IMG/VR virus record: IMGVR_UViG_2778260996_000001
Coordinates: 1 to 5,689 of that record
Direction: 5' to 3' (one strand)
From: a virus
Lineage: Duplodnaviria; Heunggongvirae; Uroviricota; Caudoviricetes
DNA length: 5,689 nt
Below, one piece after another: positions 1-5,689 of this stretch. Every line of letters starts with the position of its first letter. Position 1 is the stretch's first letter. The notes below the pieces were generated by a model, which was not told the DNA's origin, did not search any database, and saw nothing but the letters and a program-made list of their open reading frames with translations. The position numbers were made by a program, and so were the translations under genes.

Positions 1-501
1 AAAACCTGGTCCCTGACGCATCCGGTGGATGACGCAATTACCCTGCTGACACAGGGCGGCAGACTGACCTGTAAGTTCCGCCTGTCAGGCGCACTGACCA
101 ACAATCAGTTCGGGCTGGGGATTTATCTGTATACGGATGCTCCCGTTCCTGATGGTGTGGCGATGACGGGTACCGGTAATCCGTTCCTGATGTCGTACTT
201 CACTCAGACCACTGACGGCAGAGTGAATCTGATGCATCACAGGAAAGCCGGAAACACGAAGCTGGGGGAGTTCGGCGATTACGGTAACGACTGGCAGACG
301 CTGGAGCTGGTGTTCACCGCCGGCAGTGCCACGGTTACTCCGAAACTGAATGGAGTGGCTGGCCCGGCATTCCAGGTTATAAAAGACAGTCTGACACTGG
401 GACTGAATGCGCTGACGCTGACGGATGTTACAAAAAATGCAGCGTATGGCGTTGAGATAGAAAGTCTGGTGCTGGAGATAAATGCACCGGCATCATCATA
501 A
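1..501 (+). CDS. hypothetical protein, C-terminal portion (gene starts upstream of window); beta-rich, possibly lectin/carbohydrate-binding-like
   Basis: Reading frame 1 is open from nt 1 (KTWSLTHPV...) to the TAA at 499-501, so the GTG at 25 is probably internal. Gly/Thr/Val-rich composition suggests a beta-sandwich; no motif I can assign to a family. It sits immediately upstream of the lysis cassette, the slot where lambdoid prophages carry morons. Confidence 0.55.
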
Positions 502-586
502 AAAGTGAGCCAGTCAAATGGAAGGTATCGTTAAACTCACCGGTAGTGTCAGTGGGTCGTCTGAGACGCCTGCATGAGTTATCAGA

Positions 587-615
587 GCCATCAGTACTTA
601 ACTGGTGGCTTTTTT
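587..615 (+). terminator. intrinsic-terminator-like hairpin upstream of the holin gene (candidate late-operon tR'-type terminator)
   Basis: GCCATCAG (587-594) / 7-nt loop / CTGGTGGC (602-609) forms an 8-bp stem with one G-U pair, followed directly by TTTTTT (610-615). It lies 35 nt upstream of the holin ATG. Confidence 0.45.
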
Positions 616-650
616 ATTGTTGTCAGCTTCCGGATAACGGGAGACGGGGT

Positions 651-866
651 ATGTACCAGATGGAAAAAATCACAACAGGTGTGTCATACACCACGTCAGC
701 GGTGGGGACGGGATACTGGTTACTGCAGCTGCTGGACAAAGTCTCTCCGTCCCAGTGGGTGGCAATCGGTGTGCTGGGGAGTCTGCTGTTTGGCCTGCTG
801 ACGTATCTGACAAACCTTTATTTCAAGATTAAAGAAGATAAGCGCAAGGCTGCGAGAGGTGAATAA
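651..866 (+). CDS. S: class II holin / pinholin, phage 21 S21-like, with dual-start motif
   Basis: ATG at 651 preceded by GGGAGA (639-644) at 6-nt spacing. The 71-aa product [25 protein letters not shown]...[36 protein letters not shown] has two TMDs and a charged C-terminus, and closely resembles S21 / E. coli essD as I recall them. Met1 and Met4 give the antiholin/holin dual start. The GTG-extended ORF from 546 is rejected because it spans the terminator hairpin. Confidence 0.9.
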
Positions 867-1363
867 TGCCTCCATCATTACGAAAAGCCGTTGCTGCTGC
901 TATTGGTGGTGGGGCTGTTGCCATAGCGTCTGTGCTCATCACTGGTCCGAGTGGTGACGATGGCCTGGAAGGTGTCAGCTACATACCATACGAAGATATC
1001 GTTGGCGTATGGACTGTATGTCATGGACACACCGGAAAAGACATCATGCCCGGTAAAACGTATACCGAAGCAGAATGCAAAGCCCTCCTGAATAAAGACC
1101 TTGCCACGGTCGCCAGACAAATTAACCCGTACATCAAAATCGATATACCGGAAACAACGCGCGGCGCTCTTTACTCGTTCGTTTACAACGTGGGCGCTGG
1201 CAATTTCAGAACATCGACGCTTCTTCGCAAAATAAACCAGGGCGATATCAAAGGCGCATGTGATCAGCTACGGCGCTGGACATACGCTGGCGGTAAGCAA
1301 TGGAAAGGGCTGATGACTCGCCGTGAGATTGAGCGTGAAGTCTGTTTGTGGGGGCAACAATGA
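866..1363 (+). CDS. R: SAR endolysin (phage lysozyme, T4-lysozyme-like muramidase), R21-like
   Basis: ATG overlaps the holin stop (TAATG at 864-868). The N-terminus [27 protein letters not shown] is a Gly/Ala-rich signal-anchor-release domain, followed by a lysozyme core ([23 protein letters not shown] ... [21 protein letters not shown]). Near-identical to phage 21 R as recalled. Confidence 0.93.
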
Positions 1364-1797
1364 GCAGAGTAACCGCGATTATCTACGTTCTGGTCATCTG
1401 CCTCATCGTCTGCCTTTCATGGGCTGTTAATCATTACCGTGATAACGCCATCGCCTACAAAGAGCAGCGCGATAAAGCCACATCCATCATCGCTGATATG
1501 CAGAAGCGGCAACGTGATGTAGCAGAACTTGACGCCAGATACACAAAGGAGCTTGCTGATGCTAATGCGACTATCGAAAGTCTCCGTGCTGATGTTTCTG
1601 CTGGGCGTAAGCGCCTGCAAGTCTCCGCCACCTGTGCAAAGTCAACGACCGGAGCCAGCAGCATGGGCGATGGAGAAAGCCCAGGACTTACAGCAGATGC
1701 TGAACTCAATTATTACCGTCTCCGAGGTGGAATCGACAAGATAACCGCGCAGGTTAACTACCTGCAGGAATACATCAGGACGCAGTGCTTAAAATAA
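1360..1797 (+). CDS. Rz: Rz i-spanin (inner-membrane spanin subunit)
   Basis: ATGA overlap with the endolysin stop (1360-1363), GGGG at 1351-1354 as RBS. The product [39 protein letters not shown]... has an N-terminal TMD plus coiled-coil periplasmic region and strongly resembles lambda Rz from memory. The GTG at 1348 in the ORF track is a less likely start. Confidence 0.88.
1559..1744 (+). CDS. Rz1: Rz1 o-spanin (outer-membrane lipoprotein spanin), embedded in Rz in the +1 frame
   Basis: ATG at 1559 preceded by AAGGAG (1546-1551). The product [20 protein letters not shown]|[16 protein letters not shown]... has a signal peptide with lipobox-like VSAC followed by a proline-rich mature segment, the classic Rz1 architecture, and lies wholly inside Rz. 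Confidence 0.8.
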
Positions 1798-1837
1798 TTT
1801 TAATTTCACTGAAATTTAACAAGTGACTTTCAGGAAA

Positions 1838-1864
1838 ATGCCTCGCAGATGCGGGGCATTTTTG
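1838..1864 (+). terminator. rho-independent terminator downstream of Rz/Rz1 (possibly bidirectional)
   Basis: ATGCCTCGC (1838-1846) / AGAT loop / GCGGGGCAT (1851-1859) forms a 9-bp GC-rich stem with one G-U pair, followed by TTTT(G) and preceded by AAAA. Confidence 0.7.
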
Positions 1865-2015
1865 TACCGGTATTTCACCGCGCACCGCAGCGCACAATAA
1901 ACACCGAACCTGACCCTTTGGAATGGGCCTTTGAGGATACCAGTTAGTGCTGGCGAGCCTCGGTGGGCTGGTTTCCTGTGCGGCAAAGGTTCATTTCAAA
2001 GAAGCAGGCAACGCC

Positions 2016-2564
2016 ATGAATGAATTAATTGCGAATCATGACTTCGACTTTCGCCAGTTAGTTACCGCAGCAGAAGGTCAACCGGTAACTGACACCTTCC
2101 AGATTGCCAGGGCATTTGGTAAACGCCATCAGCATGTGATTAGGGCTATTAAATGTTTGAGATGTTCTGAGGAATTCTCGACAACCCATTTTTGGGCCGT
2201 CGAGAAAATCAATGGCTTAGGTATTTTTGACAAGAAACAGATTTACTACCGCATGGACTTTAGTGGCTTCGTTATGCTGGTTATGGGATTTAACGGGGCA
2301 AAAGCCGATGCTGTTAAAGAAGCCTATATCAATGCGTTTAACTGGATGTCAGCAGAACTCCGTAAGTACAGCGAAAGTTATGAAGCAGAACGTAACGCCG
2401 TAATGCTGGAGTACATGAAAGAGAAGGATGTCGCCAGCATGTCAGGCCGTCTGCTCAATCGCTGGGGGAGAACGAAAAAACCTCAATTGCTTGCAAAGCT
2501 GGAACGTCTGGAGAGACAGGGACAGTTTTTATTACCGGGATTCGATAAAGGTATTCAAGCCTGA
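2016..2564 (+). CDS. rha: Rha-family phage regulatory protein (antirepressor-like, Phage_pRha domain)
   Basis: The translation contains the Rha signature ...VTDTFQIARAFGKRHQHVIRAIKCL... and ...FSGFVMLVMGFNGAKADAVKEAYINAF.... ATG at 2016 (MNELIANHDFDF...) is chosen over the upstream GTG at 1947; both are possible starts. The position after the lysis genes matches where rha sits in P22-like genomes. Confidence 0.82.
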   Translation: MNELIANHDFDFRQLVTAAEGQPVTDTFQIARAFGKRHQHVIRAIKCLRCSEEFSTTHFWAVEKINGLGIFDKKQIYYRMDFSGFVMLVMGFNGAKADAVKEAYINAFNWMSAELRKYSESYEAERNAVMLEYMKEKDVASMSGRLLNRWGRTKKPQLLAKLERLERQGQFLLPGFDKGIQA

Positions 2565-2862
2565 CACATTATGCGCTGTATCGTCGCCGTATTCCCGCAT
2601 TAACCATGACCGTAGCCCGACAGGGAGACTCCTCTGCGCGAGTGTGCGGGGATAATCAAAAACGATACACACCGGGGTTTACCGCGTTAACGGAGCGCGG
2701 CGTTGTCCCCTCATGGTCGCTGGTTCGGTGCGATGGTGGAAGAAACCGGACGATGTGTTACCTCGCAAGACCTGTTATGTCATGTGTCTGATTTGTGATT
2801 TAAGTCGGATAATTGTCGTTGCCATTAAGCAGAGGATTGATGGCCGACAGGGTGGCATTGTT

Positions 2863-2879
2863 AGAATAAGACTTATTCT
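2863..2879. promoter_or_regulatory. perfect 8-bp inverted repeat with 1-bp spacer (candidate operator) in the promoter region of the TonB-C lipoprotein gene
   Basis: AGAATAAG-A-CTTATTCT at 2863-2879, about 20 nt upstream of the lipoprotein start. It overlaps a possible -10 (TAGAAT 2862-2867); a weak -35 candidate TTGATG lies at 2837-2842 with a long 19-nt spacer. Confidence 0.35.
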
Positions 2880-2899
2880 TATCTGTGCCGGGAATGAAA

Positions 2900-3226
2900 A
2901 TGAAAAGAAATCTTCCGTTAATTATTTTGTTGTCTTCTCTGGTTATGGGCTGTACGCAACATAAAACAGATATGCCCCGACAGTTGGTTAAGGCATTACC
3001 ACAATATCCGGCCTATGCAGCGGCAAATTATATAAAGGGACGGGTTGATGTGAAGTTTGATATTGGTGCTGATGGTACTGTCACCCGAATTGAGTTTATC
3101 CGTTCAGAGCCGCACCATCTGTTTGATGAGCAGGTTGTAAAGGCGATGGCAAAATGGCGATTTGAGAAGGACAGGCCGCGTAAAGGCGTGAAGAAAACGT
3201 TTATCTTTAGTCCTTCTGCACCCTGA
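2900..3226 (+). CDS. small secreted (probable lipo)protein consisting of a free-standing TonB C-terminal domain
   Basis: ATG at 2900 with GGGA (2890-2893) at 6-nt spacing; ATG 2894 and GTG 2885 are alternatives. Signal peptide MKRNLPLIILLSSLVMG|C with lipobox-like VMGC. The mature part LPQYPAYAAANYIKGRVDVKFDIGADGTVTRIEFIRSEPHHLFDEQVVKAMAKWRFE matches the TonB_C signature (compare E. coli TonB [55 protein letters not shown], from memory). No proline-rich linker or N-terminal ExbBD-coupling TMD is present. Confidence 0.8.
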   Translation: MKRNLPLIILLSSLVMGCTQHKTDMPRQLVKALPQYPAYAAANYIKGRVDVKFDIGADGTVTRIEFIRSEPHHLFDEQVVKAMAKWRFEKDRPRKGVKKTFIFSPSAP

Positions 3227-3357
3227 TTATTTCATCAGAAATTAATTATCACTCTGTTGTTATTCTGTACATTCCGGCTGGGTAAGTCTTGTTCCGCCGG
3301 GTATGAAGATGAAATATTGTTGGAGGACAGTGGGTACCTGCTCCTGTAACCGAACGT

Positions 3358-3558
3358 TCATTTCTCGTTATTTGTCATGCTGGCCGGACGCAGATGCGTT
3401 GCATCTGTTGCCAGCCTTCTCCTGCAGGCTTCAATAACCCACGCTGAAAAGTTACCGGAACCTTTATGTTCAAGGGCGATATTGATCTGTTCAATCATGT
3501 GATTGGGGAAACGGATATTGCGGATTGTGGTTCTGCGGGTCCGGTTTTTCGATGACAT
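3358..3558 (-). CDS. small basic ribbon-helix-helix-like DNA-binding protein (possibly YlcI/YnfO-like prophage protein family; family assignment from memory only)
   Basis: Minus-strand ATG (complement of 3556-3558) preceded by AGAGGA at 6-nt spacing. The 66-aa product has an Arg-rich N-terminus and a predicted beta-strand TIRNIRFP followed by two helices (MIEQINIALEHKG / NFSAWVIEACRRRL), an Arc/MetJ/CopG-like layout. No competing + strand ORF exists in 3227-3599. Confidence 0.65.
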   Translation of the reverse strand: MSSKNRTRRTTIRNIRFPNHMIEQINIALEHKGSGNFSAWVIEACRRRLATDATHLRPASMTNNEK

Positions 3559-3599
3559 TTTCTTTCCTCTGGTGACAAGCTATATGGAGAGGATTTTAC

Positions 3600-3965
3600 A
3601 TGGCTGTGCTTCGTACGTTACCGGGCAGAATCAAAACTCTGAACACCCGGCGGGTGAATGTCCTGAAGGGTGAACAGCGTCGGGTCAGTGGTAGTGCCCG
3701 GGTTTCCCTCAAGCGTCGTATCTGGCTGAGGGATGCCGGACAGTGCTGTCTCTGTGGGCGTGTGGTTGACCTTTGTGACAGTGAACTTGAGCACCGCATT
3801 GCACTTCAGTTCGGTGGTGGTAATGAGGAGACGAATCTCTGGACGCTCTGTACCGAATGCCATCGACAAAAGTCTGCTCGTGAAGCGGCGAGTGGTATGC
3901 CAGACCCGACGCTGCCGGAGGTGTCCGGAGGTAGTGGCAGAGCGGACGACATCATCGGACTGTAA
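3600..3965 (+). CDS. phage-associated HNH endonuclease (terminase-associated type)
   Basis: ATG at 3600 preceded by GGAGAGGA (3586-3593). The product carries an HNH/zinc-finger motif: CCLCG...DSELEHRIALQFGG...NLWTLCTECHRQK. Its position immediately upstream of the terminase small and large subunit genes is typical of HK97-like cos packaging modules. Confidence 0.9.
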   Translation: MAVLRTLPGRIKTLNTRRVNVLKGEQRRVSGSARVSLKRRIWLRDAGQCCLCGRVVDLCDSELEHRIALQFGGGNEETNLWTLCTECHRQKSAREAASGMPDPTLPEVSGGSGRADDIIGL

Positions 3966-4025
3966 CCCGACCCGGGGGGGGTATCATCCGGCGTAAAAAA
4001 AGATCGCTTTGGACACCGCCCCCCC
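3966..4025. other. candidate cos cleavage region: G8 run and C7 run flanking a 34-bp AT-rich segment
   Basis: GGGGGGGG at 3974-3981 and CCCCCCC at 4019-4025, non-coding, between the HNH stop and the GTTAAC repeat cluster. The assignment as cosN-like is inference from position only. Confidence 0.3.
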
Positions 4026-4057
4026 TCTCACGCAGAGAAAAAATTCCCGTTTCAGGG

Positions 4058-4185
4058 CAGTTAACATGTTAACTGGCTGTCCGGGCATTTTTGCGGTTTT
4101 TATCTTTATTATTCAGTTTGTTGTGCGGAAAAAATGTTAACTGGCTTTTTCAGCAAATGTTAACCAGGCAGCAGTTAACATTTGC
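4058..4185. repeat. cluster of five GTTAAC-containing repeats (18-bp perfect palindrome, 13-bp direct repeat, 12-bp inverted repeat): candidate terminase small-subunit binding sites (cosB/R-site-like)
   Basis: CAGTTAACATGTTAACTG (4058-4075) is a perfect palindrome. ATGTTAACTGGCT occurs at 4066-4078 and 4134-4146. GCAAATGTTAAC (4153-4164) and GTTAACATTTGC (4174-4185) are inverted arms with a 9-bp spacer. T-tract-rich bendable DNA lies between them (4085-4135). All of this sits directly upstream of the terS start. Confidence 0.5.
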
Positions 4186-4255
4186 GGCATGAGACGCCGG
4201 GAAAAATGGGCTGAACCATACCCGGCTGAGTGCGTTCTGGACCCGGGAGGAGGCT

Positions 4256-4819
4256 GTGCTGACAACGCAAAAACGAAAATTTGCGCTGGCGCTCATGTCC
4301 GGGAAAAACAAAACAGCGTCAGCCATTGCCGCTGGTTATTCGGCGAAGACCGCCAGGGTTAAAGGCTCGCAGCTGGCAAAAGATCCGGAGGTGCTTGCGT
4401 TTATAGCCCGTAAACAATGCGAGACGGTGGAGGTGGATGAGGTTCCTGTTTACCGGCAGAAAAAATCAGAGCAGGAGGATAAACCCCGTCGCCGTGAGGC
4501 GGCTGCAATACCACAGCCGGACGAAAACAATCCGGAGATGCCTCCGCCCGCGGTGATATCTCATGGTATTGAATATATGGAGGATGGTCTTCCCGATCCG
4601 GTGAAAGCGATGGGGCGTCTTCTGGTGGAGAACATTAATACCGACCCCAGGCTGGCGCTGGATGCGGCTTATAAGCTGGCGCAGTTCACGCACCACAAAA
4701 AAGGGGATGCCGGTAAAAAATCGGCAAAAGGTGACGCCGCGAAAAAAGCGGCTAACCGTTTTGCGGTGCCACCACCACCCCGCCTGGTGGTGAATAATGA
4801 TAATGAGGGCAACGGATGA
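4256..4819 (+). CDS. terS: terminase small subunit (phage Terminase_2/P27-type HTH small subunit)
   Basis: GTG at 4256 directly after GGGAGGAGG (4245-4253). The N-terminus KRKFALALMSGKNKTASAIAAGYSAKTARVKGSQLAKDPEVLAFI matches the small-terminase HTH signature (AGYS.K.A ... L.K.P.V..I). ATGA overlap with the downstream large-subunit gene (4816-4819). Confidence 0.85.
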   Translation: MLTTQKRKFALALMSGKNKTASAIAAGYSAKTARVKGSQLAKDPEVLAFIARKQCETVEVDEVPVYRQKKSEQEDKPRRREAAAIPQPDENNPEMPPPAVISHGIEYMEDGLPDPVKAMGRLLVENINTDPRLALDAAYKLAQFTHHKKGDAGKKSAKGDAAKKAANRFAVPPPPRLVVNNDNEGNG

Positions 4820-5616
4820 TACCTGTGTGGAGCACGGCCTGCCCGGACTGGGCAGAGCGCCTGAAAAAGGGGCTGTCGATTATTCCGGCTCCGATTTATC
4901 CGGAGCAGGCCGCACATGCCCTGGCGATTTTTAAACAACTGCGGATTGTGGATGCACCTGGTAGCCCTACGTTCGGGGAGTCCTGTGCACCGTGGGTGTT
5001 TGACCTGGTGGCGGCCCTGTTTGGCTCCTACGATGCGCAGACCGGTGTACGCCATATCAAGGAAGTTTTTATCCTTATCCCCAAGAAAAACTCGAAGTCC
5101 ACGCTGGCCGCGGGGATCATGATGACTGCACTGTTACTGAACTGGCGGCAGGCGGCGGGTTACACGATTCTGGCCCCGACTGTGGAGGTGGCGGCCAACG
5201 CCTTCAACCCTGCCCGGGATATGGTACGACGTGACGATGATCTGGATGACCTCTGCCAGGTACAGACCCATATCCGGACCATCACCCACCGGGTGACGGA
5301 CACCACCCTGAAGGTGGTGGCAGCCGATCCGAATACGGTGTCCGGTATCAAGTCCGTGGGTACGCTGATTGATGAGTTGTGGCTGTTTGGCAAGCAGTGC
5401 AAGGCGGAGGACATGTTACGTGAAGCCATAGGCGGCCTTGCCTCCCGCCCGGAAGGGTTTGTGGTGTATACGACCACCCAGTCGAATGAACCGCCCGCCG
5501 GGGTGTTCAGACAGAAACTGCAGTACGCCCGGGATGTGCGCGACGGCAAAATTCATGATCCGCACTTTCTGCCGGTGATATTTGAACACCCTCCTGAAAT
5601 GGTGGAAAGCGGGTAA
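4816..5616 (+). CDS. terL: terminase large subunit, N-terminal ATPase domain only; ORF ends prematurely (probably disrupted or pseudogenised)
   Basis: Translationally coupled to terS. Walker A-like P-loop ILIPKKNSKST and Walker B-like VGTLIDELWLFG (compare HK97 TerL GRKNGKS / IIDELHAH, from memory). The ORF stops at 5614-5616 after 266 aa and all three forward frames hit stops by 5665, whereas large terminases are typically over 400 aa with a C-terminal nuclease domain. Confidence 0.8.
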   Translation: MIPVWSTACPDWAERLKKGLSIIPAPIYPEQAAHALAIFKQLRIVDAPGSPTFGESCAPWVFDLVAALFGSYDAQTGVRHIKEVFILIPKKNSKSTLAAGIMMTALLLNWRQAAGYTILAPTVEVAANAFNPARDMVRRDDDLDDLCQVQTHIRTITHRVTDTTLKVVAADPNTVSGIKSVGTLIDELWLFGKQCKAEDMLREAIGGLASRPEGFVVYTTTQSNEPPAGVFRQKLQYARDVRDGKIHDPHFLPVIFEHPPEMVESG

Positions 5617-5689
5617 GCGTCGTCTCAGCACCGTCTGGCAGATCCTGAAATTCCTGAGAGAATAGTGGACACCAAATATGGTGGACGCT

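Follow-up and report, generated by a model that had tools for sequence, protein, structure and literature searches.

A minus-strand gene at 3358..3558 of the window, by which we mean the whole 5,689-nucleotide stretch of viral DNA analyzed (positions 1 to 5,689 of IMG/VR record IMGVR_UViG_2778260996_000001), was identified by profile searches as a genuine member of the catalogued, uncharacterized YlcI/YnfO (DUF3950) family, and we refer to it as ylcI. Its product is most likely a small regulator expressed from the prophage, belonging to a known family of unknown function, and nothing ties ylcI specifically to control of the neighboring HNH endonuclease and terminase genes. The gene was already catalogued and an identical protein had been annotated by PGAP, hence it is no discovery. 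The family is of interest as one without known function that is yet common in E. coli, strongly constrained, and unannotated in reference lambda.

The open reading frame (ORF), listed by program at 3358..3558 (−), comprises 66 codons plus stop, and its product is MSSKNRTRRTTIRNIRFPNHMIEQINIALEHKGSGNFSAWVIEACRRRLATDATHLRPASMTNNEK. This protein matched Pfam DUF3950 (PF13132) with an E-value of 4.6e-20 (71.7 bits against a cut-off of 25), NCBIfam YlcI_YnfO_N (NF041551) with 35.3 bits against a cut-off of 30, and PHROG 949, a group of unknown function, with an E-value of 2.7e-32. A first-pass annotation, made from the sequence alone, had named a DUF3950/YlcI-like family here, and the Pfam and NCBIfam scores above their cut-offs confirmed that assignment. 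At 66 amino acids, the protein falls among family members of mostly 54–81 amino acids. N36, F37, S38, and W40 are all present; an NFS motif and a conserved Trp in a core of about 30 residues are the family hallmark in the Pfam description.

Residues 1–50 were nearly invariant among 120 close homologues, with several unrelated tails following after about residue 50, and R16, F17, F37, S38, W40, and C45 were invariant across 82 sequences. The conserved core (codons 1–50, 3409..3558 (−)), delimited by the homologue alignment, the ratio of non-synonymous to synonymous substitution rates (dN/dS), and an AlphaFold2 model, runs from a basic N-terminal arm through an N-I-R-F-P segment and a helix at residues 19–32 to the NFS motif and a helix from residue 37. 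The tail comprises codons 51–66 plus stop (3358..3408 (−)), and an imperfect hairpin lies there at 3382–3397 / 3401–3416 (inverted repeat I1, 16 nt, 75% complementary). Over codons 1–50, the window and lambda genes differ by 26 synonymous and 6 non-synonymous changes (Nei-Gojobori), with dN/dS about 0.03–0.1 against lambda and the other copies and synonymous sites saturated. Codons 1–50 are therefore under strong purifying selection. Functional constraint is limited to the first ~50 residues, and the C-terminal tail is mosaic. Because synonymous changes saturate while the protein stays conserved, ylcI encodes a real protein and is neither a chance ORF nor a DNA-level recombination linker.

The family is narrow. 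At E ≤ 0.001, 101 clusters (50% identity) were retrieved among 1.84 billion representatives, and many of these are error-ridden lambda reads. Divergent members, 30–40% identical, occur in Proteus, Providencia, Morganella, Serratia, Pectobacterium, Dickeya, Xenorhabdus, Yersinia, Klebsiella, Salmonella, Pasteurella, Aggregatibacter, and Gilliamella, and these retain R16, F17, F37, S38, W40, and C45. Homologues sit in lambdoid prophages and satellites, mobile elements of Gammaproteobacteria, and about a quarter of complete E. coli genomes carry the family, often in multiple copies. Our literature search returned no reported function for YlcI, YnfO, or DUF3950. PADLOC gave no match for YlcI, TonB_C, Rha, DUF1398, or a YlcI–TerS_N fusion protein described below, and a defense function for YlcI was rejected on that basis. 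About half of 80 genome loci were lambda DNA in unrelated assemblies (Kitasatospora, Cohnella, Pedobacter, Streptomyces, Candidatus Nanosynbacter, and others), many of them on contigs of ~3.5 kb that resemble sequencing-control contamination; such contamination would also account for many frameshifted “homologues” from ~3.5-kb ENA contigs.

In the window, the ylcI start codon lies at 3556–3558 on the minus strand, preceded by a ribosome-binding site, AGAGGA (plus-strand TCCTCT), read at 3565..3570 (−), 6 nt 5′ of the ATG. The range flagged by the first-pass annotation, 3358–3599, is the ORF plus the intergenic gap, and its description of a minus-strand gene with an AGAGGA site agrees with what we found. 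The 41 bp it gave between the two divergent starts is exact (3559..3599). Two ribosome-binding sites, that of ylcI and that of HNH (GGAGAGGA at 3586–3593), fill most of this gap, which ends at the HNH ATG at 3600. A plus-strand gene for a TonB_C lipoprotein (2885–3226) flanks ylcI on one side and HNH on the other. The region 3230–3700 is 100% identical to E. coli O103 ML775, whose protein WP_027663612.1 (PGAP “YlcI/YnfO family protein”) is 100% identical to the window product. The window as a whole is 96% identical to phage JLK-2012 over 82% of its length, and many Stx1/Stx2-converting phages match it at about 95%. From these matches, the window can be placed within an Stx-type lambdoid prophage. 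In the annotation of ML775 and JLK-2012, ylcI is the sole minus-strand gene between the lysis genes and terminase, bearing out the earlier view of a lone minus-strand gene.

By tblastn, the window protein was found in 153 phage records, the reference lambda genome included. Lambda (NC_001416.1) carries an intact 64-codon ylcI ORF at 48109–48303 (−), 199 bp from the right end, with no annotated feature under it in the RefSeq record and a sequence identical to K-12 YlcI. Lambda nu1 starts at 191, so that in DNA that is circular or integrated as a prophage cos lies between two divergent genes, ylcI and nu1, 389 bp apart. The same layout is found in the K-12 prophages DLP12 (ylcI–nohD) and Qin (ynfO–nohA); the spacing to nu1/nohD is 388–389 bp across lambda, DLP12, and Qin. 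The K-12 proteins YlcI (DLP12) and YnfO (Qin) and the lambda ORF belong to the same Pfam/NCBIfam family as the window protein, the lambda core being 86.5% identical over residues 1–52, and like the window gene they are encoded last before the packaging genes and opposite the late operon. They differ in their C-terminal tails and in what lies upstream, which is cos and nu1/nohD at 388–389 bp in lambda and K-12 but HNH at 41 bp in the window, in unrelated DNA. Opposition to the late genes was seen throughout the window, YYZ-2008, JLK-2012, lambda, DLP12, Qin, and ev099. In the Nu1-type phages, a DUF1398 gene (ybcV/ydfO/lambdap78) and then bor follow downstream on the ylcI strand, with an opposite-strand gene, ybcW/p79, interposed between ylcI and DUF1398 in lambda and DLP12. 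In lambda, DLP12, and Qin, ylcI is thus the first gene of a short anti-late block where the lysis and packaging modules meet; this block is reduced to ylcI alone in the window, which lacks DUF1398 and bor. The lambda “orf-64” was considered as a candidate for ylcI and rejected, being lambdap73, a different ORF between Q and S, and its reported lysogen expression is therefore not transferable to ylcI.

We aligned HNH-type copies (window, YYZ-2008) against Nu1-type copies (lambda, DLP12, Qin, ev099). Homology between the two types extends from the ATG to about codon 50. Their upstream DNA is unrelated, with one common 8-mer where 2.9 would be expected by chance. The putative recognition segment reads TIRNIRFPNH in the window and TTRNIRFPNQ in lambda, with two to three differing positions and an identical N-I-R-F-P. 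By this comparison, ylcI is plainly portable between packaging modules, and evidence of an operator or of regulatory coupling is absent from the alignment. The lambda/DLP12 interval between ylcI and cos has features of its own, namely a −10-like hexamer, AATAAT, directly followed by the inverted repeat ATCAATTA-N17-TAATTGAT, and a Fur-box-like palindrome, ATGATAAT-A-ATTATCAT. These elements lie about 70–102 and 148–164 nt upstream of ylcI, at ~48,37x–48,47x of lambda.

The fold of the protein was approached through an AlphaFold2 monomer model built from the 82-sequence alignment. Mean predicted local distance difference test score (pLDDT) was 74.5, with values of 80–90 at residues 11–50 and <50 at residues 60–66, and the modeled layout is extended up to residue 18, with helices at 19–32 and 37–55 and a disordered tail. 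Foldseek against the PDB gave a single match, NikR 2bj3 (E=5.3), below significance; a second structural match, VapB12 7e4j, was also below significance, and both are ribbon-helix-helix (RHH) proteins. Comparison with BFVD structures added nothing. When hhalign was run against Arc, Mnt, and CopG, I-R-F-P and the first helix fell on the RHH β-strand and helix A each time. Like YlcI, Arc and Mnt of phage P22 are small, phage-encoded proteins with a basic N-terminal arm; in all of them an N-[IL]-R-[FW]-P strand motif leads into a helix, and these helices align in register. Judging from the model and these alignments, an RHH-like fold is the most plausible reading for YlcI, and one we consider fairly probable; YlcI is a candidate member of the RHH superfamily.

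Homologues in satellites offer a further view of what the family might do. In ~30 satellite loci, drawn from a sampling of one genome per species, a ylcI homologue lies between alpA/int and the primase operon, always on the opposite strand, and the ~90 bp upstream of it are conserved across genera by alignment. This region begins distally with a GGTG-N6-7-CAC palindrome abutting an invariant octamer, CACGTCAA, whose opposite strand gives TTGACG, a hexamer resembling a −35 element and directed at the primase operon. After a T-rich spacer comes a TATAGT −10, with which a second palindrome, GTGT-N4-ACAC, overlaps; next are a Shine-Dalgarno sequence and the ATG. The E. coli 90-3040 satellite has a TATAAT immediately ahead of the ATG, bracketed by two perfect GGTACGTACC palindromes spaced 33 bp apart. 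No other perfect copy occurs in 27 kb, and the observed count was reached in 0 of 100 shuffles. The arrangement suggests the architecture of an autoregulated repressor with the palindromes as candidate operators, which supports a repressor role for the YlcI family, and the divergent control region is a candidate genetic switch of these satellites. Like the SaPI Stl–Str module and the P4 immunity region, the satellite clade has a small gene divergent from a replication (primase) operon, and, in the manner of a master repressor, paired palindromes lie over its own −10 and beside the opposing −35-like hexamer. Unlike Stl and P4, it has only putative operator binding, and there is no sequence relationship. 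The window copy, unlike these SaPI/P4-like modules, is without the satellite-type control architecture. Together, satellite homologues and operator-like palindromes make a testable candidate for silencing of Gram-negative phage satellites, and the satellite control region and the unannotated copy in lambda are more interesting by-products of this analysis than the window gene.

A covariation between recognition-strand residues and operators in the satellites was considered and dropped: a protein with KNIRFP (locus L065) has a palindrome of the GTGT..ACAC class, and one with KNIRFE (locus L095) has GGTACGTACC. The octamer CACGTCAA, invariant in the satellite control regions, is also present in the lambda/DLP12 ylcI–cos interval. 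The E. coli 90-3040 element (NZ_CP027459.1) is a satellite-like insertion of ~8.8 kb (~12787–21600 of locus L098) in the terL of a window-type prophage. Entering at about terL codon 92, in the Walker-A-like segment IPKKNSKS, it leaves terL as two pseudogene fragments. Its cargo comprises an integrase, a helix-turn-helix protein, a YlcI–TerS_N fusion, a 60-amino-acid YlcI, an Icd-like protein, a primase, a Terminase_2 TerS, and a capsid gene.

For the lambdoid gene, we propose that the YlcI core would fold as a small dimeric RHH-like DNA-binding protein, in which a basic arm and an N-I-R-F-P recognition strand would be accompanied by two helices. Because ylcI lies opposite the late operon, it would be expressed from its own weak leftward promoter during prophage quiescence, much as a moron is (an accessory gene with its own expression, set within a phage operon), and would then be silenced by Q-antiterminated late transcription. 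YlcI itself would be a small regulator or repressor of transcription, with no recognizable operator adjoining the gene in the window phage, and ylcI would be a portable gene of the lambdoid lysis/packaging junction whatever the terminase type, not a dedicated controller of HNH and terminase. For the whole of this reading, a dimeric RHH-like DNA-binding regulator made from the anti-late strand of the prophage and shut off by late transcription, we put our confidence at evenly balanced. If true, such a regulator would be an unstudied piece of lambdoid lysogenic gene expression.

Published expression reports, counted here in favor of this reading, cover K-12 homologues and their neighbors and are all indirect for the window gene. 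ExcludonFinder lists ybcW–ylcI among pairs of convergent, overlapping transcripts, seen in 50% or more of the K-12 RNA-seq samples (PMC12288877). The ydfO gene, which lies 57 bp downstream of ynfO, was strongly induced by ionic liquid (PMC4077768), and ybcV and ybcW mRNA were PdhR-dependent (PMC7660256).

Several results weigh against the proposed regulator. No significant match to any RHH family or structure emerged from sequence, profile, or structure searches. A Pfam search, suggested in the first-pass annotation as the test for RHH, found no such family at E≤1; phmmer and the family profile against PDB sequences gave neither an RHH nor any other meaningful match; BLASTP against Arc found nothing; and the hhalign match to the Arc-family profile, though in the correct register, is weak (P-value 0.005, probability 7%). 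The β-α-α layout that had been described is an interpretation and was not itself observed. The RHH β-strand would form only in a dimer, and the monomer model cannot display a β-ribbon. YlcI also differs from Arc and Mnt in having no adjoining operator or antirepressor operon evidently under its control. A consensus scan found neither a promoter-like nor a terminator-like site for the window ylcI. Its opposite-strand orientation fits a moron. The sole candidate σ70 promoter, from a relaxed scan (3593..3621 (−)), is an unconvincing 8/12 match that falls short of the consensus-scan threshold, with a −35 GTAACG (3616–3621, 3/6), a 17-nt spacer, and a −10 TAAAAT (3593–3598, 5/6). A k-mer comparison of HNH-type and Nu1-type flanks, cos, and downstream regions gave nothing above chance. 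The satellite motifs CACGTCAA, GTGTNNNNACAC, and GGTACGTACC are not enriched in the window, with none near ylcI, and the literature search turned up no family member with direct data on expression, binding, or phenotype.

A different role, as a DNA-binding accessory of packaging or cos that might modulate terminase access to cos or packaging specificity, draws on position. With any terminase type, ylcI invariably comes last before the packaging module, at the distances from the lambda right end, nu1/nohD, and HNH given above. Two independent satellite proteins, P0197 and P0211, fuse a YlcI domain to a TerS N-terminal domain (Pfam Terminase_2) that is 62–66% identical to residues 2–54 of the window TerS, and the satellite carrying P0211 is the one inserted in terL of a window-type prophage. 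These fusions and that insertion keep alive the idea of YlcI acting at cos. Yet ylcI stands on the strand opposite to the late and packaging genes, and the stand-alone satellite homologue lies between alpA and primase and not beside terS. Such fusions are uncommon, with 2 among 17 divergent representatives and 0 among the 120 best matches, and in them the YlcI part may supply dimerization only. The window cos region and the lambda-type cos flanks share no sequence. On balance, we consider a packaging role unlikely.

Upstream of the YlcI–TerS_N fusion gene of E. coli 90-3040 (19440–19560 of locus L098) there are 4–5 GTT(T)AACAC repeats. The presumptive cos/TerS-binding region of the window, between HNH and terS, has five GTTAAC-containing repeats (GTTAACATGTTAAC at 4061–4074 and AAATGTTAAC at 4132–4185). 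These repeats may be a common recognition motif of related TerS N-terminal domains. No meaningful DNA similarity was found between the window cos region and the satellite loci.

A broader reading would make YlcI proteins the repressors of widespread satellites in Enterobacterales, Pasteurellaceae, and Gilliamella, binding paired palindromes in the ylcI/primase region. The lambdoid copies beside cos, the lambda ORF and the window gene among them, would then be helper-side homologues cross-talking with satellites or packaging, for instance through anti-satellite immunity or cos occupancy. We hold this combination to be decidedly unlikely. The narrower proposal, that phage YlcI acts on satellites through immunity or control of induction, or was acquired from them, seems to us improbable. 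In its favor, homologues are conserved, palindrome-flanked genes of satellites, a satellite with two DUF3950 genes interrupts terL in the window-type prophage of E. coli 90-3040, and YlcI/YnfO is listed among the accessory genes of capsid-forming phage-inducible chromosomal islands (cf-PICIs) of Enterobacter cloacae (PMC13612085). This evidence is, however, purely contextual; the satellite palindromes were not found in the window, and the phage and satellite clades are only 30–40% identical.

The first-pass annotation had proposed that a promoter and operator of ylcI overlapping the HNH 5′ end would allow an autoregulated repressor, or antisense transcription, to tune HNH and terminase expression. 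The HNH gene (3600..3965 (+); Pfam HNH E=5.2e-6, PHROG 589) is the divergent neighbor and the first gene of the packaging module; it lies outside the ylcI unit and is treated here as context only. The geometric part of the proposal is correct, in that the 41-bp divergent arrangement is real and any ylcI promoter must overlap the HNH 5′ end. The sole promoter candidate does overlap the HNH start codon, with its −35 within HNH codons 6–8, and the HNH–ylcI junction is 95–100% conserved in 401 E. coli genomes. The regulatory part is not supported, as the same core occurs beside unrelated upstream DNA in lambda, DLP12, Qin, and ev099, with homology beginning at the ATG and no motif common to the flanks. 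Apart from the two ribosome-binding sites, no inverted repeats were found in the 41-bp gap. The predicted RNA fold of 3545–3625 was not unusual (z = −0.95), and a regulatory hairpin formed by the two opposed ribosome-binding sites was rejected on that value. In lambdoid phages, the Q-antiterminated late transcript covers HNH, for which no promoter nearby would be needed; a weak convergent ylcI promoter, matching its consensus at only 8 of 12 positions, would therefore be silenced by that transcription and would not control it. We give local control of HNH and terminase little credence.

Less probable still is that YlcI is an RHH antitoxin left over or orphaned from a type II toxin–antitoxin pair. 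The absence of a partner toxin-like gene, noted earlier, was upheld, with no minus-strand ORF downstream of 3358 and the plus-strand TonB_C gene next, so that no co-directional ORF follows ylcI in the window. In lambda and DLP12, the opposite-strand ybcW/p79 separates ylcI from DUF1398, neither DUF1398 nor YlcI has a PADLOC match, and overexpression of YdfO was reported to be protective rather than toxic (PMC4077768). Finally, a conserved DNA block open by chance, such as a recombination linker at a module boundary, would suit so short a conserved stretch (~150 bp) with mosaic junctions on both sides, but the substitution pattern against lambda effectively refutes it, and its probability is negligible. 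The retention of the invariant residues in 30–40% identical homologues across Enterobacterales, Pasteurellaceae, and Gilliamella also speaks against it.

Other features were noted to the left of ylcI. A perfect 8+8 palindrome, AGAATAAG-c-CTTATTCT, lies at 2863–2879, just 5′ of the TonB_C start; it had been named earlier as a possible YlcI site, and no counterpart was found near ylcI in the other contexts examined. The best σ70 match of the region lies at 3054–3027 (−), inside the TonB_C gene (TTCACA, 16-nt spacer, TATAAT, 11/12), and points leftward, with no ORF obviously served. The TonB_C gene itself (2885–3226 (+)), located between the lysis genes and ylcI, encodes a protein of 113 amino acids that carries a signal resembling those of lipoproteins (…LVMGC) and in which Pfam recognizes a TonB C-terminal domain (E=5.8e-15). 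The PHROGs label for this family, “Rz-like spanin,” looks like a misnomer, and the protein may be the product of an accessory gene that interferes with TonB-dependent uptake.
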